The notes under the pieces are model-generated. The model saw only the letters and a program-made list of their open reading frames with translations, did no database searches and was not told where the DNA came from. A program made the translations under genes and the position numbers. 64,000 nucleotides of DNA from Candidatus Kapaibacterium sp. (GTDB taxonomy: Bacteria; Bacteroidota; Ignavibacteria; Kapaibacteriales; UBA2268): assembly GCA_041675005.1 (NCBI GenBank), contig JBAYUQ010000011.1:15270-79269 (forward strand), written 5' to 3'. Shown here in pieces: positions 5,721-16,387 of this stretch. The first letter of the stretch is position 1, and each line of letters opens with the position of its first letter.

Positions 5721-7379
5721 TTATTTACCCATTGGTATATTTATATCGAATTTTTTTGCGTTGTCTGTGGCTCTGTCGTAGCCGGCGTCTGCGTGTCTTA
5801 GTATTCCCATTAGTGGGTCATAAGTCAGAACTCTTTCTAATCTGCATTTAGCTTCTTCGGTACCATCAGCGACTACGACCATCCCTGCATGTTGTGATAG
5901 CCCCATACCTACTCCACCGCCGTGATGTAATGAAACCCACGAAGCACCTCCAATAGCGTTCAGTGCGAAGTTTAGGAACACCCAATCAGAAACTGCATCT
6001 GAGCCATCTAGCATTCCCTCTGTTTCTCTGTAAGGTGATGCAACTGAACCGCAATCCAAGTGATCACGACCAATTACGATAGGAGCTGAGACTTTGCCAG
6101 TTCTTACTAGTTCGTTGAATAGTTGGCCTGCCAACGCTCTTTCTCCATATCCTAACCAACAGATACGAGCAGGCAACGCTTGGTAGCGAATATTAGCCGC
6201 AGCATTATCTATCCATCTATGTAGTGGTTCGTTATCTGGGAAAAGATTCTTGATTGCTTCATCAGTAACAGCAATATCATCAGGATTACCCGACAATGCA
6301 ACCCAACGAAAAGGTCCTTTACCATCGCAGAATAGAGGACGTATATATTCAGGTACGAATCCTTTGAATGCAAAGGCATCTTTGTATCCGCCATTATCCT
6401 GAGCTATACCACGTATATTATTTCCGTAATCAAATACTACAGCACCTTTCTTCTGGAATTCTACCATTGTTTCTACGTGAGTAGCTATTGATTTATATAC
6501 TTCTGATAGGTATTTCTCAGGGTCAGCTGCTCTTAGCTTATCAGCTTCTTCTTTGCTATATCCAGCTGGATAGTATCCGTTCAGTGGGTCGTGAGCAGAC
6601 GTTTGGTCAGTTACAATATCTGGAACAATTCCTCTTCTCAAAAGTTCAGGTAGAACCTCTGCGGTATTCCCGATTAGCCCAATTGATTTTGCTTCGTTAT
6701 TATTCTTAGCTTCATTCATTACTCGCAATGCATCGTCAAGATTATCAACTTTTACATCACAATACCCATCGTGGATACGCTTGTCTATTCTAGTCTCATC
6801 TATCTCGACTGTGATAGAAGCAGCACCAGCGAACTTAGCAGCAAGTGGTTGAGCACCACCCATACCACCCATACCGCCAGTTAGTAGGAATCTTCCATTC
6901 AGTGTACCACCAAAATGTTGCCTAGCACACTCTGCGAAAGTCTCGTAAGTTCCTTGTACTATGCCTTGAGTACCAATGTAAATCCAGCTACCAGCAGTCA
7001 TTTGGCCGTACATCATTAATCCTTTCTTATCCAACTCACGGAAATGTTCCCAATTCGCCCAGTTAGGTACTAAGTTCGAATTGGCTATTATTACTCTAGG
7101 AGCAGCAGTATATGTCTTGGCAACGCCAACTGGTTTACCTGATTGGACTAAGAGCGTTTCGTCTATGTCCATATTCTTTAGCGTGTTTGTAATAGCATCA
7201 AAGCTTTCCCAATTTCTAGCGGCCTTCCCCAGCCCCCCATACACGATTAGCTCTTCTGGCTTTTCAGCATTCTCAGGGTCTAGGTTGTGGTGTATCATAC
7301 GGTACGCGGCTTCTAGTTGCCAGTTTTTACAAGTTAATTCCGTACCTCTAGGTACAGTTACTGTTCTTTTTGTAGTCAT
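5721..7379 (-). CDS. hutU: urocanate hydratase
   Basis: 552 aa, recognisable along its full length as urocanase ([60 protein letters not shown]). Confidence 0.93.
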
Positions 7380-7811: not shown

Positions 7812-7989
7812 TCGTCACTCAGAGGAAGCGAAGCGAGCGAAGAGTCCAGGAGAACTGCGGAGCTGTTCAATATTAGTAGCATCTGTTGACAGACCTAACA
7901 CAACAACTTCACTAGGAGTTGAATAGTAATGGGACTAAAGTCCAAAGTTTTTTTTTGTTGCCTATTTATCCGTTGGCTGAAGCCAACGG
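7812..7989 (+). repeat. composite hairpin repeat (short version)
   Basis: TCGTCAC..GCGAAG..CCAGGAGAACTGCGGAGCTGTTCAATATTAGTAGCATC ... GTTGAATAGTAATGGGACTAAAGTCC ... CCGTTGGCTGAAGCCAACGG. It is collinear with the reverse complement of 23503..23878. Confidence 0.8.
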
Positions 7990-7996
7990 CAATACT

Positions 7997-8305
7997 TCAA
8001 TCCGTTCTTCGTTTAAACGAAAATAAGAATATTAATTCGATAGTACCAACTAACCAATATATTGGCCATTTGAGCCAAAGATATAGGAGGTTAAAACCAT
8101 CTACTACTTCATTTCTAGAATGGACTAAATACGATTCTAATTCGGTTGATAAATATGGTAGTGCGAATAGAAAGGAAATAACAAATAATGTAATAGTAAG
8201 ACTTGAGAGTGTAATTTTACGTTTCTTAGAGATAATGCTAAGGTCTACAATTATTATTAGTAATAGAATAATTAAATCGAAATATGTAAATAAGTCAGTT
8301 ATCAT
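7997..8305 (-). CDS. small membrane protein (about 3 TM), hypothetical
   Basis: 102-aa ORF with three hydrophobic segments. It starts 19 bp downstream of the S24 peptidase gene on the same strand. No recognisable motif, so coding status is uncertain. Confidence 0.45.
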   Translation of the reverse strand: MITDLFTYFDLIILLLIIIVDLSIISKKRKITLSSLTITLFVISFLFALPYLSTELESYLVHSRNEVVDGFNLLYLWLKWPIYWLVGTIELIFLFSFKRRTD

Positions 8306-8324
8306 TTAGATACATCCTCATTAC

Positions 8325-8753
8325 CTACACCTCATGTATAATATGCTTTACTACACCTTGTATTTCGAATTTGCAATATCCAGTTATTTCTATTGGTAAG
8401 TATTTTTGGTTGGCAGAAACTAGGTATATCTTGCCATCTTTGCGGCGGAGTTTCTTTACTGTCATCTCGCCATCGAGTGAAGCGACTACTATTTGACCTT
8501 CTTTGGGCTCAGTTTTAGCATCTACTATTAGTATATCGCCTGTGAATATATTCTCGTCTATCATACTGTCGCCAGTAACTCGAGCCATATACACATCTTT
8601 GCTTCCTGTGAGCAATAAGTTGCCTAAGTCGATAGATGTCTCTATCGATTGCAACATAACCGAACCACGCTGTATGCTTGCTGGCAATAGCGGTGCTTCG
8701 AATGTGAACCCTTGTATAGGGTTACCATATTTGTCTGCTCTTAGTCTATACAT
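8325..8753 (-). CDS. UmuD/LexA-type S24 peptidase domain protein: catalytic dyad intact, atypical cleavage-site region
   Basis: 142 aa. VTGDSMIDENIFTGDILIVD (Ser nucleophile) and GEMTVKKLR (Lys base) align with E. coli UmuD GDSMIDGGISDGDLLIVD and GEFTVKKLQ. The position of the UmuD Cys-Gly site reads SIQRGSVML. No HTH domain. Confidence 0.8.
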   Translation of the reverse strand: MYRLRADKYGNPIQGFTFEAPLLPASIQRGSVMLQSIETSIDLGNLLLTGSKDVYMARVTGDSMIDENIFTGDILIVDAKTEPKEGQIVVASLDGEMTVKKLRRKDGKIYLVSANQKYLPIEITGYCKFEIQGVVKHIIHEV

Positions 8754-8813
8754 ATTCTTTTTCTATTTCGTTGGACTTGCTTTTTATTTAAGTCCAACAA
8801 TTGCTGTGCCGTT

Positions 8814-9242
8814 TTAGAGAGAATGGATCACTTTAGTAACTGTTCCGAGTATCTGAAAATCTATCAATGACTTATTCTCGTCCAAAGGCAAAAACTGTCC
8901 TAGATGAGACTCTAAGAATCTACTTCCATCTATCTCACGGTAGAATCTAACAGCCAAATCATCATTAACCGAAGCTATGACAAACTTACCATCTGTTGGG
9001 TCAATAGACGTATCAATTATAAGAATATCGTTGTCTGATATTCCAACTGATTTGAGCATATCACCTTTTACTTTCACGAAGAAAGTTGCTGCTGGATGTT
9101 CTACTAAAAATTCGTTCAAATCTACTTCTCTGTCAACATCCCCCTCGACAGGAATAGGAATACCAGCCGCTACGGACATAGTAAAGAACGGAATCTTTCT
9201 ATCGGATTTTGGTAAAAAACCGATTACTTCGAATTGTTGCAT
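8814..9242 (-). CDS. UmuD/LexA-type S24 domain protein, predicted catalytically inactive (Ser->Met, Lys->Arg), canonical Ala-Gly cleavage loop
   Basis: 142 aa. FFTMSVAAGIPIPVEGD..VDLNEFLVEHPAATFFVKV matches the UmuD/LexA cleavage-site region. The catalytic motifs read KGDMLKSVGISDNDILIID and DDLAVRFYR. Confidence 0.8.
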   Translation of the reverse strand: MQQFEVIGFLPKSDRKIPFFTMSVAAGIPIPVEGDVDREVDLNEFLVEHPAATFFVKVKGDMLKSVGISDNDILIIDTSIDPTDGKFVIASVNDDLAVRFYREIDGSRFLESHLGQFLPLDENKSLIDFQILGTVTKVIHSL

Positions 9243-9393
9243 TGTAAAACCTTAGAATTGTGGAAAACTTCCTTTATGCTATCTCAAATATATGATAATT
9301 ATGAATATAATGCAAATGAAAATGTTAACAAACTCAATTATCTTGTAATCGTTTTATAACTTTTGAGACGTATTCAATACGTCTTTACACTGC

Positions 9394-10366: not shown

Positions 10367-12340
10367 TTGAGATATTCACTTCTCATAGTATTCTTTGTAG
10401 CTATTGCTATAATCACAACCCCTCTCCAATCACAAAATAGAGAGCAGGCAAAGCTTGAATTATTGAACGAAAAACTAAAAACAGCAGTAGAAGACACAAA
10501 CAAAGTAACGCTCCTCAATCTGATGTCATTCCAATATAACTCGATAGACCCTGAACTTGGAATCAAATACGGCAAACAATCTCTAGAATTAGCCGAAAAA
10601 CTAAATTGGCAAACCGGAATTGCAAAATCATATAATTCAATAGGTGGTAATCTATATGCTTTAGGCAATTTCGAAGAGGCACTCAATTATTTCAAAAAAG
10701 CTCTAAAGCTAAACGAAGAGCGCAAGGATAAACAAGGTATTGCTAAAAATTTGAGTAATATCGGGAATATATATTATAATCTATCGAACTATTCTATTGC
10801 ATTGAACTATTACCAGAAAGCATTGAAGATTGATATAGAGATTGGTGAGAAGGAAGGCGAAGCAGATAATAACGGTAATATCGGGAATATATATAGTGAT
10901 CTTACCAATTATAAAAGTGCACTAAAGTACTATAGTAAAGCTTTAAAAATACACGAACAGATAAACAACAGACGCGGTATCGCAACTATTCTCGGTAATA
11001 TGGGTACAGCTTATCTCGACTCAAAGCAATATGACAAGGCACTAACGAATTTCAGCAAAGCATTAGAACTATGGGAACTTTTTGGAAATAAATTCGGAAT
11101 AGCTACTAATCTTGGAAATATTGCTAATACTTATAATTATCTTTCAGATTATCAGTTAGCTATAACTAATTATGAGAAAGCACTTGCTATTAATGAGGAA
11201 ATAGGAAACAAGTTCGGAAGTGCTGCTATAATGGGTAATATGGGTGGACTATATTACAACCTAACACGGGATACAGTAATATCTAAGTTGAAGGAAAAGA
11301 ATAGTACAATTCTTTTGGACAAAGAATACAATATAGAACGATCAATCAAATACAGTGAAAAAGCAACAGAACTCGCAGAATTAATCGGCTCTAAGGATAT
11401 GCTCAGAGAATTCTACGGATATTTGGAAAAGGCATACGCACTTAAAGGCGATTTTAAAATGGCACACACTTTTCAAAAGAAGTGGATTGAATTGAGAGAT
11501 TCTATTTTCAGTGTTCAGAAAACAAAAGAAATAGCAAAGCTAGAGGCAACAAAGCAAGGTGAGTTAAATGAGAAAGAAATCAAATTAAGAGATTTGGAAC
11601 TTTCTCGTAAGAGCAATGAGCAATATGTACTAATTCTCGGATTTGGTGGGGCTGCTATTATGCTCTTACTTGTCTTTTTCGAAAGACGAAAGTCAGAGAA
11701 ACTATTATTGAATATCCTCCCTGCGAAAATTGCAAAACGATTAAAGAATAATGAAAAAAGAATAGCGGATAGATTCGAAAATACAGCTATTATATTTCTT
11801 GATATAGTTGGGTTTACTAGCTTTTCGAAGGACACTGACCCTGTGAAAGTAGTATCTGTACTTAACGAAATATTCACAAAGTTTGATAGTTTGACCAAAA
11901 AGTACGGTCTAGAAAAAATTAAGACAATTGGTGATTGCTATATGGCAGCAGCTGGTTTACCAGAACCGCACCCACATCCTATACTATCAACTGCCAAATT
12001 TGCACTTGATGCTCAAAGATTAATGCGAGATTACACGACGAAAGAAGGGCATAAGCTTAATTTCAGAATAGGAATTGATGCTGGACCAGTAGTGGCAGGA
12101 GTAATCGGTGAGCGTAAATTTAGCTATGATTTATGGGGCGATGCTGTAAACACTGCATCCCGTATGGAAAGCACAGGACTACCTAATGAGATACAAGTAA
12201 CTGAGAATTTTGCAAAAAGTCTAGCTGGTTATAATATAACTTGTGAAGAACGTGGCGAAATAAATATAAAAGGTAAGGGTTTAATAAAGACTTATTTACT
12301 CAAAGATCAAACCATTCGAAATAAAAGGTCGGGTAAATAA
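10367..12340 (+). CDS. TPR-repeat sensor / class III adenylate cyclase, tandem paralog 1
   Basis: 657 aa: signal peptide, about 8 TPR units (A...Y.KALKI.E..G), a coiled coil, one TM (YVLILGFGGAAIMLLLVFF), then a cyclase domain (FLDIVGFTSFS, KIKTIGDCYMAAAGLP, FSYDLWGDAVNTASRMESTG). The Lys in KTIGD and the Asp in YDLWG indicate ATP specificity. Confidence 0.88.
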   Translation: MRYSLLIVFFVAIAIITTPLQSQNREQAKLELLNEKLKTAVEDTNKVTLLNLMSFQYNSIDPELGIKYGKQSLELAEKLNWQTGIAKSYNSIGGNLYALGNFEEALNYFKKALKLNEERKDKQGIAKNLSNIGNIYYNLSNYSIALNYYQKALKIDIEIGEKEGEADNNGNIGNIYSDLTNYKSALKYYSKALKIHEQINNRRGIATILGNMGTAYLDSKQYDKALTNFSKALELWELFGNKFGIATNLGNIANTYNYLSDYQLAITNYEKALAINEEIGNKFGSAAIMGNMGGLYYNLTRDTVISKLKEKNSTILLDKEYNIERSIKYSEKATELAELIGSKDMLREFYGYLEKAYALKGDFKMAHTFQKKWIELRDSIFSVQKTKEIAKLEATKQGELNEKEIKLRDLELSRKSNEQYVLILGFGGAAIMLLLVFFERRKSEKLLLNILPAKIAKRLKNNEKRIADRFENTAIIFLDIVGFTSFSKDTDPVKVVSVLNEIFTKFDSLTKKYGLEKIKTIGDCYMAAAGLPEPHPHPILSTAKFALDAQRLMRDYTTKEGHKLNFRIGIDAGPVVAGVIGERKFSYDLWGDAVNTASRMESTGLPNEIQVTENFAKSLAGYNITCEERGEINIKGKGLIKTYLLKDQTIRNKRSGK

Positions 12341-12341
12341 A

Positions 12342-14285
12342 TTGATGAATAAAATGTACATATTCCATATCTTAATCTTATACTTTTTGATGACAACTCC
12401 TTTAGTGCCTTCTAACAAAGGTGAGAAGACAATTGACTCGCTAATGTCCAGATTATCTAATATAAAGGATGATACTAACAAAGTCAATTTGCTTTGTTCA
12501 TTATCAGCAAACTTCTACACTATAAGTCCAGACTCTGGGATAAAATATGCCGATTTAGCAAATAATCTATCCGGGAAAATAGGGTGGGAGAAGGGTAAAG
12601 CTAAGGCATATAATAACCTAGGCGTTAACAATTCGATTAAAAGTAATAACAATGAAGCTGTTACTTACTTTAAAAAAGCATTAAATATATACAAGGAACT
12701 AGGTCAAAAAGAAGGTATATCTCAACAACTTGGGAACCTTGGCATAGCGAGTATGAATCTATCAAACTTTACGGCCGCACTTGATTATTACCAACAGGCA
12801 CTTAAAATAGCCGAGAAAGATGGTATAAAAGCCAGTATAGCTAGACAAAATGGTAATATAGGAATAGTATATACATATCTGAAAGATTATAATAAGGCAT
12901 TAAAATATTATAGAAAATCTTTAGAGTTTACCGAAAAGCAGATAGAGAAGGATAAAATCTCAAAACTATTTGGAAATATTGCTTGGAACTATACTTTTTT
13001 AAAAGATTATGATAAGGCATTGGACTACTACCAGCGTGCCTTAGAACTAGACGAAGAATTAGGTAATGTCAAAAGTATAGCTATTCGATTAGGCAATATT
13101 GGCATTTTATATTGGGAAATGCTAGACTATGCTAAAGCTTATGATTACTATCATCGAGCATTGAAAATGAATGAAGAGATTGCTAGTAAAGGCGGTGTGG
13201 CCGTCAATCTTGGAAATCTGGCAGCATTACACTTTATCTTATCCCAAGATAGTGTGATTCAAAATTTAAAATCGAAGAATACAAATTTCAATTTAGATCG
13301 AAATTATAATTTAATAAAAGCAATAGAATATGCACATATGTCTAAAGATTTATCGCTAGAAATAGGTGATAAAAGACAGTTGATGGAAGTATATAGTACT
13401 TTAGATAAAGCAAATGAATCTATAGGGAATTATGAGAATGCTTATAAATATCAAACCCGATGGGCTAACATAAAAGACTCTATATTCAGCGTAGAGAAGA
13501 CTACCGAAATTGCTAACTTAGAAGCCAAAAAAGAAAATGAGATAAAAGAAAAAGAGCTGACGCTAAAGGATTTGGAATTACTCAGAAAGGTAAATGAACA
13601 GACAGCTCTTTTCGTTGGTTTGGCTGCAGTAGTGATATTACTAATCGTTATATTTATGCAACGCCGTAAATCAGAGAAATTACTTCTGAATATAATGCCA
13701 GAAAAAATTGCAAAAAGATTAAAAAGAAATGAGAAAAATATTGCCGATAGATTTGAGGAAGTCTCAATTATATTTGTGGATATAGTTGGCTTTACTTCCT
13801 ATTCTAGAGGGACCGAACCAGAGGAAATAGTATCAGCATTGAATGATATTTTCACTAGGTTTGATATACTATCTATAAAGCATGGACTAGAGAAAATAAA
13901 AACCATTGGTGATTGTTATATGGCAGTAGCTGGATTACCAGAACCACACGATAACCACACCCTGGCAACTGCTCGATTCGCACTAGAGGCAAAAGACTTG
14001 ATGCATAACTATGTAACTCCTGATGGACATAAATTGCTATTCAGAATTGGTATAGACGAAGGGCCTGTAGTAGCAGGAGTAATTGGTGAATCAAAGTTCA
14101 GCTATGATCTATGGGGTGATGCAGTTAATATGGCTTCTAGAATGGAAAGTACTGGTTTGCCAAATGAGATACAAGTTACCGAAAACTTTATAAATGAAGT
14201 AAAAGACTTCGGTATAAAGTACACGGAACGTGGCGAAGTAGAAATCAAAGGAAAAGGTAAGGTTACGACTTATCTACTTAAATAA
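12342..14285 (+). CDS. TPR-repeat sensor / class III adenylate cyclase, tandem paralog 2
   Basis: 647 aa with the same architecture: FVDIVGFTSYS, KIKTIGDCYMAVAGLP, FSYDLWGDAVNMASRMESTG. The true start may be the ATG at 12345 or 12354. Confidence 0.88.
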   Translation: MMNKMYIFHILILYFLMTTPLVPSNKGEKTIDSLMSRLSNIKDDTNKVNLLCSLSANFYTISPDSGIKYADLANNLSGKIGWEKGKAKAYNNLGVNNSIKSNNNEAVTYFKKALNIYKELGQKEGISQQLGNLGIASMNLSNFTAALDYYQQALKIAEKDGIKASIARQNGNIGIVYTYLKDYNKALKYYRKSLEFTEKQIEKDKISKLFGNIAWNYTFLKDYDKALDYYQRALELDEELGNVKSIAIRLGNIGILYWEMLDYAKAYDYYHRALKMNEEIASKGGVAVNLGNLAALHFILSQDSVIQNLKSKNTNFNLDRNYNLIKAIEYAHMSKDLSLEIGDKRQLMEVYSTLDKANESIGNYENAYKYQTRWANIKDSIFSVEKTTEIANLEAKKENEIKEKELTLKDLELLRKVNEQTALFVGLAAVVILLIVIFMQRRKSEKLLLNIMPEKIAKRLKRNEKNIADRFEEVSIIFVDIVGFTSYSRGTEPEEIVSALNDIFTRFDILSIKHGLEKIKTIGDCYMAVAGLPEPHDNHTLATARFALEAKDLMHNYVTPDGHKLLFRIGIDEGPVVAGVIGESKFSYDLWGDAVNMASRMESTGLPNEIQVTENFINEVKDFGIKYTERGEVEIKGKGKVTTYLLK

Positions 14286-14293
14286 GGAATAGA

Positions 14294-16387
14294 ATGAAAT
14301 TTAGAGTTTTGCTTTTATTATTTACTTTAACTATATCTATACAATCTCTTTTGTCACAAAAGCAAGGGCAAGAGAAGTTAGATTCATTACTCAAGGTATT
14401 GCCAAAGGCGAAGAATGATACAGCACATGTGAGTTTATTGGCCGAATTATCTAAAAGTATTCAAGCCACTAACCCTGATAAAGGTATTAAGTATGGGGAA
14501 AGAGGTGTTAAACTAGCCAGCCAATTAGATTGGGAACAAGGGATTGCAGATAACAATGTTTCCATCGGTTTAAACTATGCTTTAGGCAAATCAGATTTTA
14601 CAAAAGGGAAGTTATACTTTGATAAAGCCCTAAAGACTTACGAAGATTTAGATCTCAAACTAGAACTAGGTAAGACTTTAGTAAACATTGGTATAGTTTA
14701 TCAAAATCAATCATTATACGATAAAGCTATTGAGAATTATGAAAAGGCATTAGATATATTCGATAGATTAAAAGACAAAGAAAGAATAGCAAGTACATTG
14801 GGCAATATAGGTTTTGTATATAGAAGTCAATCTGATTATGCCAATGCCTTAGAATACTATCAAAGATCGCTATCTATGTTCGAAAAACTTGGGAATAAGA
14901 GTGGAATTGCCACTAACCTCGGTAACATAGGGATGATTTATGATTATCAAAGTGATTTCACAAGAGCTCTAGAATACTACAACAAAGCCATTGAATTAAA
15001 GCAAGAGTTGGGGGATAAAACTGGTGAAGCAGCATTATTATCTAATATCGGTTTGGTCTATTATTTTAAGAGTGATTATCCTCATGCCTTGGAATATCTT
15101 CAAAAGTCAGTAGATATATTTGATGATATTGGAAATAAATATGGAGTTGCATCTATACTTGGAAATATAGGTATCATTTATCAGAAGCAAAATGAGTTTT
15201 CGAAAGCATTAGAAAACTATAAAGAAGCTGTTAATATATATGACGAGTTGGGTAATAAATCTAGTTTAGCTAGCAATCTTGGCAATATAGGTGAGTTCTA
15301 TTATAACATATCACAAGACTCGGTAATAGTTAAAATAACAGAAGTTACAAACTATATCAGTACTAACAAACAAGTCAACTTAGAACGATCAATATCTTAC
15401 TATAATCAAGCAATAAAACTACTAGAGGAAATAGGTGAACTAGACACACGTTCAAGATTCCTGAAAGGTCTTTCTGACTCTTATAAACTCAAAGGGGATT
15501 ACGCCAAATCGCTTGAGTCTTTCAAAGCTTATATTAGTTTAAAAGATTCAGTATTTACTGAAAAAACTCAAACTCGTATAGCTAACCTAGAAGCTATAAG
15601 AGAAAACGAAATAAAAGACAAAGAACTAGAGATAAAGAACAGAGAAAACGAGATACAGAACCTAGAGATAACTAAAGCTAAAAATGAGAGATGGGCATTT
15701 ATAGGAGGTGCAATTGGGATAGCACTTATCGCAATATTAGTTTTCAGACAAAGACAAAGGTCAGAAAAGTTATTGCTTAATATTCTTCCTTTGAAAATAG
15801 CTAAAAGATTAAAGAGAAAAGAACGACTTATCGCTGATGATATAGAGTGTGCTAGTATAGTATTTATTGACTTAGTCGGCTTTACTGCCTACTCTAAAGA
15901 TAGAAAAGCATCAGATGTATTACAGATGTTGAACGATGTGTTCCACGAGATAGACGGCCTAATAGTAAAATACGGTCTAGAGAAAATTAAAACTATTGGT
16001 GATGGGTATATGGCTGCGGCTGGAGTTCCCGAGCCGTGTGATGACCATTCCGTTAGAGCAACGAACTTCTCACTTGATGTACATATAGTTCTGAAAGAAA
16101 TTAACGCAAAAATGAATACCGATATACGTGCGAGAGTTGGTATAGAATCAGGTCCAATTGTAGCCGGCGTAATCGGAGAAATGAAATTTGCTTATGACCT
16201 ATGGGGAGATTCAGTAAACACCGCATCGAGAATGGAGTCAACTGGAACTCCTGGGTTAGTGCATATATCATCAAATGTAAAAAGGGAACTAGATGGACAG
16301 AATCATAATTTCAAGTTCGATGAACTACCGCCGATGGAAGTAAAAGGAAAGGGCGAAATGATTACATATATGGTTCATAGAAAGTAG
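14294..16387 (+). CDS. TPR-repeat sensor / class III adenylate cyclase, tandem paralog 3
   Basis: 697 aa with the same architecture: FIDLVGFTAYS, KIKTIGDGYMAAAGVP, FAYDLWGDSVNTASRMESTG. Confidence 0.88.
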   Translation: MKFRVLLLLFTLTISIQSLLSQKQGQEKLDSLLKVLPKAKNDTAHVSLLAELSKSIQATNPDKGIKYGERGVKLASQLDWEQGIADNNVSIGLNYALGKSDFTKGKLYFDKALKTYEDLDLKLELGKTLVNIGIVYQNQSLYDKAIENYEKALDIFDRLKDKERIASTLGNIGFVYRSQSDYANALEYYQRSLSMFEKLGNKSGIATNLGNIGMIYDYQSDFTRALEYYNKAIELKQELGDKTGEAALLSNIGLVYYFKSDYPHALEYLQKSVDIFDDIGNKYGVASILGNIGIIYQKQNEFSKALENYKEAVNIYDELGNKSSLASNLGNIGEFYYNISQDSVIVKITEVTNYISTNKQVNLERSISYYNQAIKLLEEIGELDTRSRFLKGLSDSYKLKGDYAKSLESFKAYISLKDSVFTEKTQTRIANLEAIRENEIKDKELEIKNRENEIQNLEITKAKNERWAFIGGAIGIALIAILVFRQRQRSEKLLLNILPLKIAKRLKRKERLIADDIECASIVFIDLVGFTAYSKDRKASDVLQMLNDVFHEIDGLIVKYGLEKIKTIGDGYMAAAGVPEPCDDHSVRATNFSLDVHIVLKEINAKMNTDIRARVGIESGPIVAGVIGEMKFAYDLWGDSVNTASRMESTGTPGLVHISSNVKRELDGQNHNFKFDELPPMEVKGKGEMITYMVHRK

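Follow-up and report, generated by a model that had tools for sequence, protein, structure and literature searches.

Two paralogous UmuD-like proteins of Candidatus Kapaibacterium that may divide self-cleavage between a protease and a substrate

UmuD is cleaved in an intermolecular reaction that licenses error-prone DNA synthesis, and it took engineered mutants and a recent cryo-electron microscopy (cryo-EM) structure to settle whether a subunit cuts itself or its partner. The locus described here raises the question of whether two natural genes have come to share this reaction, one supplying the enzyme and the other the substrate, and, if so, what the reaction controls. The locus lies in a 64-kb window from Candidatus Kapaibacterium sp., the whole stretch of DNA that was analyzed and the one to which coordinates refer unless another locus is named. 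On its minus strand, gene A (8814..9242) and gene B (8325..8753) each encode a UmuD-like S24 protein of 142 amino acids (aa). Both genes share orientation and reading frame and are separated by a 60-nucleotide (nt) intergenic spacer (8754..8813), and the order of transcription is A (9242 to 8814), B (8753 to 8325) and then a hydrophobic open reading frame (ORF), M (8305 to 7997). Judging from sequence comparisons, we consider it probable that the pair is a conserved two-gene operon in Kapaibacteria-type Bacteroidota and that the tasks of UmuD self-cleavage are divided between its paralogous subunits, with A as the 'substrate' half and B as the 'enzyme' half.

With respect to A, the protein matches the Pfam family Peptidase_S24 (PF00717) at 2e-16 (60.2 bits; cut-off 23.3) and E. 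coli UmuD structures at about 1e-18, with an alignment to UmuD 8gmt. The HMMER and MAFFT alignments place the scissile bond of A at A26|G27 (codons 9162-9167), in the N-terminal arm, where the protein reads MSVAA|GIPIPV at the Cys24–Gly25 bond of UmuD. The Ser nucleophile and Lys general base of an active S24 peptidase are both absent. Specifically, M62 (9057-9059) stands at UmuD Ser60 and R99 (8946-8948) at UmuD Lys97, with KGDML opposite SGDSM and AVRFY opposite TVKKL of UmuD. An AlphaFold2 (AF2) model built from the family alignment has a mean predicted local distance difference test (pLDDT) score of 69 and finds UmuD'/UmuD as its top Foldseek/PDB matches. The modeled core resembles UmuD', and arm residues 16-37 fall below a pLDDT of 50, a low value that fits a segment docking onto a partner. 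By its residues, then, A is a predicted pseudo-enzyme member of the S24 fold family.

Protein B presents the converse arrangement. It matches PF00717 at 1.7e-28 (99.1 bits; cut-off 23.3) and E. coli UmuD structures at about 1e-18. The HMMER alignment to UmuD' and the MAFFT alignment show that it keeps S63 (8565-8567) and K100 (8454-8456), in the contexts VTGDSMIDE and TVKKL, which is the Ser-Lys pair predicted to make an active S24 peptidase. The position homologous to the scissile bond is occupied by R29-G30 (8664-8669), in the context IQRGS, and a FEAP motif is conserved near the N-terminus. The AF2 model of B (pLDDT 73) has Foldseek template-modeling (TM) scores of 0.84-0.87 to UmuD'/UmuD, and for either model the matches to UmuD' and to LexA C-terminal domains have a probability of 1.00. 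An earlier note on this DNA had pointed out the two adjacent 142-aa S24 ORFs without a DNA-binding domain, the textbook cleavage loop of A with its Ser-to-Met and Lys-to-Arg changes, and the intact Ser and Lys of B with Arg at the scissile position. The ORF coordinates, the PF00717 matches and both alignments bear out this description, and the catalytic residues of A are truly missing rather than displaced in the alignment.

Taken together, A and B resemble E. coli UmuD2 (PDB 8gmt; PMC9926225) in having a stand-alone S24 domain, an N-terminal arm, an Ala/Cys-Gly site and a Ser-Lys pair. UmuD, to which they are about 30-40% identical, is the top structural match for both. PF00717 is the only domain in either protein, so that both share the arm-bearing, DNA-binding-domain-free architecture of UmuD, and neither combines site and pair in one polypeptide. 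Both fall below the cut-off of 110 bits for the NCBIfam UmuD model NF007621, with 91.3 bits for A and 101 bits for B. Their scores against the LexA model TIGR00498 (cut-off 110.95) are 54.5 and 86.3 bits, respectively, and cover the C-terminal domain only. The PF01726 winged-helix domain of LexA is absent from A in the Pfam search and likewise from B, and PADLOC matched none of A, B and M to any defense-system model. By these comparisons, A and B are neither LexA proteins nor part of a known defense system.

Is this pattern a peculiarity of one locus? Species-representative genomes were scanned with a B profile and metagenomes with an A profile, and every S24 ORF of the resulting loci was classified by family hidden Markov models (HMMs). 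Homologues of A were found in metagenome-assembled genomes (MAGs) labeled Kapaibacteria, 'Chlorobiota' and 'Ignavibacteriae', and homologues of B constitute a small distinct family, with LexA proteins next in the list of matches. HMM scores were bimodal: on the A model, A-type ORFs reached 157-233 bits, against about 70-130 on the B model, for B-type ORFs the relation was reversed, and canonical single umuD-like genes scored nearly equally on the two. A neighbor-joining tree likewise recovered A and B each as monophyletic, and the A and B proteins of one locus are only about 39% identical to each other.

Column statistics (UmuD numbering) were taken over non-redundant sets of 60 A, 59 B and 63 canonical single umuD-like sequences. 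In the A family, Val22, Ala24, Gly25 and Pro27 (V-x-A-G-x-P) are present in 60/60 sequences. The Ser60 column holds Ser in 12 of the 60 and otherwise N, E, D, M, A, F and others, the Lys97 column holds Lys in 48 and Arg in 12, and no conserved alternative nucleophile was found among the 60 sequences. In the B family, Gly58, Ser60, Met61, Val96 and Lys97 are invariant (59/59), and the cleavage-site columns have an entropy of about 3 bits. The canonical singles have both the cleavage site and the Ser-Lys pair without exception (63/63). The losses are thus strictly directional, with not one A lacking the site and not one B lacking the catalytic pair. Since the B proteins recovered by the A-based scan were not chosen on their active site, their catalytic-pair statistic is not circular. 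The split into enzyme-only and substrate-only proteins, which the earlier note had seen at this locus, therefore holds across the family, and orthologous pairs keep the complementarity even as the replacing residues vary.

The two genes also travel together. A lies directly upstream of B on the same strand in 22/24 B-type loci of species-representative genomes, B lies directly downstream of A in 37/39 evaluable A-type metagenome loci, and the spacing between them has a median of 54 nt (56 pairs). The pair is retained down to about 45-50% identity, in many genera and in varied genomic neighborhoods, and complete genomes that carry it include OY761611.1, OW818654.1, JAVSMQ010000001.1 and Ga0610007_00001. 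Against close relatives, the ratio of nonsynonymous to synonymous substitution rates (dN/dS) ranges from 0.017 to 0.047 in A and from 0.023 to 0.031 in B, synonymous sites being close to saturated, and A has diverged less than the neighboring short-chain dehydrogenase (SDR) gene. By this measure both A and B are functional genes under strong purifying selection (dN/dS 0.01-0.05).

How, then, might two half-proteins work? In the cryo-EM structure of UmuD on RecA, the dimer is asymmetric. Its inner protomer meets RecA via D91, E93 and a Y52/F94 pocket, and directs its Ser60 at Cys24 of the outer protomer. RecA holds the arm of that outer protomer (F18, L21, Q23, F26, P29) (PMC9926225). Moreover, when uncleavable but active UmuD is combined with inactive UmuD S60A, cleavage in trans is efficient and depends on RecA (PMC5342242). 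If a dimer cleaves strictly in trans, a protomer that lacks the site leaves the other active site without a target and so free to decay, and an invariant Ala-Gly in a protein that has no nucleophile makes sense only if another active site engages it. We propose, close to the obligate heterodimer suggested in the earlier note, that A and B would form a UmuD-like heterodimer in which the B active site cuts the A arm in trans between Ala26 and Gly27. B would be the inner protomer contacting RecA and A the outer protomer presenting its arm. Conservation follows these predicted roles: the RecA-contact residues are kept mainly in B (E93 in 54/58 B and 32/60 A; G92 in 55/58 B and 19/60 A), and the F18 position is aromatic in 58/60 A and, like the cleavage motif, not conserved in B.

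The product of this reaction, A'.B, would be an activated UmuD'-type dimer with a single processed arm. In a model of DNA polymerase V (Pol V), one UmuD' arm inserts into UmuC and the other subunit binds the UmuC tail (PMC12926913); given that a single arm is inserted there, an A'.B dimer with one processed arm may suffice. Just after the cut in A, conservation is high at Gly27, Pro29, Pro31 and a subsequent acidic residue, which is what a newly exposed N-terminus with a function would lead one to expect. Overall, we consider it rather likely that B cleaves, or at least engages, the A arm in trans. More tentatively, the processed arm might act, as in Pol V, on a Y-family or other translesion polymerase encoded elsewhere, and we put the chance that the output is a translesion polymerase at about even.

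Support of an independent kind comes from proteins that carry two S24 domains in one chain. Of 1.84 billion representative proteins searched exhaustively with a profile, 98 matched at E <=1e-30, and about 15 proteins of 246-301 aa among the best 150 have this architecture (among them P0243-P0248, P0251, P0252, P0257, P0258, P0283, P0284, P0288 and P0332). When 14 of these were aligned one domain at a time, domain 1 was seen to have an arm with Ala/Cys-Gly in 13/14, and its catalytic pair is degenerate in at least 10/14, as in RDDAM/VVRRW, GDAF/ALRRI, DGDMP and GDFT/YAQEL. Domain 2 has no arm and carries an intact G-x-S-[ML] motif and Lys in 14/14. The domain order, substrate then enzyme, is that of the genes A and B. 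Both fusion domains score best on the canonical profile rather than on the A or B profile, which argues that the split in the fusions arose independently of A and B. In 4/4 evaluable loci (P0248, L149:5001-5750; P0246, L150:4001-4837; P0251, L151:4001-4795; P0257, L152:1952-2719) the fusion directly adjoins umuC, recognized by its IMS, IMS_C and DUF4113 domains. The fusions therefore share with A–B the site/pair split and its order, and differ in being single polypeptides, in their umuC linkage and in their origin; their position next to umuC points towards a Pol V-type role for the pair as well.

Several observations weigh against the trans-cleavage operon as proposed, and in particular against its polymerase output. 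With the UmuC of a canonical locus as seed, jackhmmer detected no Y-family polymerase ORF in the 64-kb window, and none lies within the flanks of any of the 62 pair loci (at least 3 kb on both sides in 38, at least 5 kb on both sides in 31), so that the umuC adjacency typical of umuD is missing from the A–B pair throughout. Past the cut, the arm of A reads G-[IVY]-P-[VI]-P-[VA]-[DE], unlike the canonical GFPSPA[DE]D, which contacts UmuC. No recognizable SOS operator was found upstream of A, where the two recurrent motifs, a G-run and AGCATAAAG, are not palindromic. In some lineages the division is incomplete, as Ser and Lys are jointly present in 9/60 A sequences and Ala-Gly in 9/59 B sequences. 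Finally, B stands alone at L013:7971-8396 and L018:7935-8390, and A stands alone at L104:6004-6423 and L109, both of these A proteins lacking the Ser (GNEL).

With respect to the last two points, in the less degenerate pairs L113, L110, L132 and L103 (A at about 6001-6432, B at about 6490-6920) B retains Ala-Gly, and in L113 A also retains Ser and Lys; these pairs may be intermediates in the division of labor. The solo A and solo B loci suggest that the pair was unlinked rather than lost in one sublineage. A separate feature of loci L146 (7433-8563, minus strand) and, likewise, L147 is a solo A gene adjoined by an apparently split XRE-type helix-turn-helix (HTH) and S24 repressor. In L146 a 120-aa HTH protein ending in VAAGKLDD is followed by a 103-aa S24 core with GDSM and K, and an HRDC-domain gene lies beside it. 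The split repressor may be a regulator of the cI or LexA kind, or what is left of a prophage.

The missing polymerase is itself open to more than one interpretation. As a positive control, umuC was found directly downstream in 36 of about 56 canonical single umuD-like loci. Loci L029, L031, L032, L034, L035, L037 and L053 (about 7.6-8.4 kb in the locus) carry canonical umuD-like genes with no umuC in the flank, and these orphans, from Ignavibacteria, Kapaibacteria and Bacteroidota MAGs, have LPLFLESVSAGFPSPADDY, GDSM and VKR and are apparently fully functional. In several of them an aminotransferase-like gene follows. The 4.5-Mb chromosome OW818654.1 holds both an orphan canonical umuD-like gene (L037) and an A–B pair (L145). 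Because such orphans are common, missing umuC linkage is weak evidence that a polymerase is absent. A word-indexed search with the L050 UmuC recovered only close relatives of the query, from Spirochaetota, Thermodesulfobacteriota and one Ignavibacteriales.

Against this background, the strongest competitor to a polymerase output keeps the same cleavage and gives it another use, in that A' or the released 26-residue N-terminal peptide would control a checkpoint of replication or cell division, the replicase or its clamp, or transcription through a partner. The pair would then be a DNA-damage sensor without a link to translesion synthesis, which is the direction in which the earlier note read it, as a signal-processing module rewired to an unknown output. 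The contrast in umuC linkage between 0/62 pairs and 36 of about 56 canonical single loci speaks for it, as do the divergence of the A post-cut arm from the canonical GFPSPA arm, the operon's own specific leader motif, and the polymerase-independent partners of E. coli UmuD, which include the alpha, beta and epsilon subunits (PMC5342242). The pair loci nevertheless offer no conserved neighbor that hints at another output, the membrane ORF M is not conserved, the fused analogues of like architecture adjoin umuC, and orphan canonical genes are common enough in the phylum to make an unlinked state weak evidence. The earlier statement that the pair has no polymerase partner, and is rewired to an unknown output, stands only as far as the genomic neighborhood is concerned, for the window and for all pair loci. 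Beyond that, the complementary fusions beside umuC raise a polymerase partner encoded elsewhere to at least the likelihood of a new output. We regard a non-polymerase output as unlikely, if the most credible of the alternatives, and are equally reserved about its broadest form, in which A–B would be a polymerase-independent sensor of RecA filaments and the primary damage switch of Kapaibacteria-type bacteria, with a checkpoint, replisome or transcription output.

A second alternative questions whether A is cut at all. Instead of being productively cut, the conserved Ala-Gly loop of A could fill the B active site as a pseudo-substrate, or serve as a decoy, and in this way gate B. The true target of B would then be a different protein, for instance a repressor resembling LexA, or the orphan UmuD-like protein of canonical type encoded in the same genome. 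An invariant A loop and an invariant B pair are equally expected for a tight-binding pseudo-substrate, and in OW818654.1 the canonical cleavable protein of L037 would be available as a target. On the other hand, G27, P29 and P31 after the cut are as conserved as the residues before it, a pattern to be expected of a new N-terminus with a function. P1 and P1' of A show no change of the inhibitor type, and the layout is shared by the fused analogues, which belong to a Pol V context in which cleavage brings about activation. The decoy is on balance improbable, and less favored than a non-polymerase output. The idea that the pair is a decaying tandem umuD duplicate from a lost umuDC operon, without joint function, would account for the missing catalytic residues of A and the absence of a nearby umuC, but it is already contradicted by the dN/dS of 0.01-0.05 in both genes, by retention of the pair to about 45-50% identity over many genera and neighborhoods, and by the strictly directional pattern of what is kept and lost, and we give it next to no weight.

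The division of roles that we favor, with B as the protease and A as its substrate, has a laboratory counterpart. McDonald et al. (1998, PNAS 95:1478, as cited in PMC9926225) reportedly described an engineered UmuD heterodimer of an inactive S60A subunit and an uncleavable active variant. UmuD-delta18 with S60A is an engineered heterodimer of this kind (PMC5342242). These heterodimers follow the same substrate-only/enzyme-only logic, with efficient cleavage in trans; they are laboratory mutants of one gene, whereas A and B are a natural, conserved gene pair. E. coli UmuD2, for its part, derives from one gene and consists of complete protomers, in contrast to two paralogous genes with one role each and no adjacent umuC. 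If A is cut, A'.B would resemble E. coli UmuD'.UmuD in having one processed and one unprocessed arm. UmuD'.UmuD is an intermediate in inactivation and degradation, whereas A'.B would be the only product unless A' pairs with itself. The uncleaved arm of UmuD carries ClpX and Lon signals (PMC5342242), and the conserved uncleaved arm segment of B (FEAP) may be compared with it. S24 proteins in non-standard roles, in bacteria with an atypical SOS response, are also represented by Acinetobacter UmuDAb with DdrR and by the non-canonical LexA of Bacteroidetes (PMC8565304); UmuDAb and this LexA have DNA-binding regions and cleave themselves, whereas A and B have no DNA-binding domain. Full-text literature searches found no account of paired, tandem, pseudo-enzyme or fused UmuD, nor did we find a published description of the two-S24 fusions, which agrees with the earlier impression that this is not a described system.

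In terms of wider meaning, a self-cleaving switch appears, from these protein comparisons, to have been split into one part that only cuts and one part that is only cut; the parts are two genes in Kapaibacteria-type bacteria and are joined in a fused gene elsewhere. The natural split and the independent fusions lend evolutionary support to obligatory trans cleavage and to a functionally asymmetric UmuD dimer. To read the pairs and fusions as evolutionary proof that UmuD-type cleavage is intermolecular in vivo would go further, and we hold that only as a tentative, rather doubtful prospect. If the interpretation is right, a duplicated trans-cleaving S24 dimer would predictably resolve into a dedicated protease and a dedicated substrate, and if the partner is not a polymerase, the pair would define a new output of DNA-damage signaling. 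In the A–B pair, nature offers a clean setting in which the enzyme, substrate and RecA-contact roles can be told apart. It also calls for corrected annotation, as public records label A and B indiscriminately as 'LexA family protein', 'S24 family peptidase' and 'DNA polymerase V'.

Turning to the surroundings of the pair, the upstream region of the operon (9243..9393, minus strand), with the preceding SDR gene and then a hairpin, contains a Bacteroidota-type -7-like box, TATATTTG (9285-9292), the operon-specific leader motif AGCATAAAG (9272-9280), which is enriched before A genes, and GGAAGTTTTCC (9262-9272), all on the minus strand. Promoter-like hexamers at 9331-9304 and 9316-9287 were not above chance. 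Among 55 non-redundant A upstream regions (L003-L124), a G-run (TTCGGGGGGA-like) occurs in 38 and AGCATAAAG in 18, with neither in 7. Across the 361 genes of the loci, 12 of the 15 G-runs and 9 of the 12 copies of AGCATAAAG precede A genes. The G-run often lies 4-8 nt from the ATG, where it resembles a strong Shine-Dalgarno sequence; elsewhere it lies 30-60 nt upstream. On the plus strand, positions 9262-9272 read GGAAAACTTCC, which fits GGA-N5-TCC, the box of the non-canonical Bacteroidetes LexA (PMC8565304), and is conserved among the closest relatives only. We rejected this match as an SOS operator, as the window holds 10 occurrences against 8.1 expected and the match is probably due to chance.

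Downstream of B, after a gap of 19 nt, lies M (7997..8305, minus strand), a 102-aa ORF. The earlier note had placed it correctly and had taken it for a three-pass membrane protein that forms part of the module. Two hydrophobic segments of M pass the Kyte-Doolittle cut-off and a third is plausible, and the ORF has no match in Pfam or NCBIfam. Relatives of M occur only at L085:6939-7247 and L086:6939-7247, with 79-82% aa identity and a dN/dS of 0.25-0.28, by which M is a real gene under purifying selection, restricted to the closest relatives. It is absent after B in L005, L001, L006, L087 and every locus further removed; there B is followed by an unrelated gene, in most cases a convergent one. 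Synteny with L005, the closest species-representative genome (A 94-95% identical), stops exactly at the B stop codon. M was therefore rejected as a third component, which removes it from the module as first drawn. All-against-all clustering of flanking ORFs from 26 loci gave no shared neighbor besides the pair, apart from the synteny of close relatives. With no conserved neighbor and M limited to one lineage, the conserved unit is A and B alone.

A perfect 9-bp inverted repeat (7970-7989) lies past the M stop codon. An Rfam scan of the window gave a tRNA elsewhere in it as the sole match. The neighbors of A and B in the window include genes for urocanase, short-chain dehydrogenases and tetratricopeptide repeat (TPR)-cyclase proteins. 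The last of these are three tandem paralogues on the plus strand (10367-16387) of 657, 647 and 697 aa, each with TPR repeats, a transmembrane segment and a C-terminal adenylate/guanylate cyclase domain.

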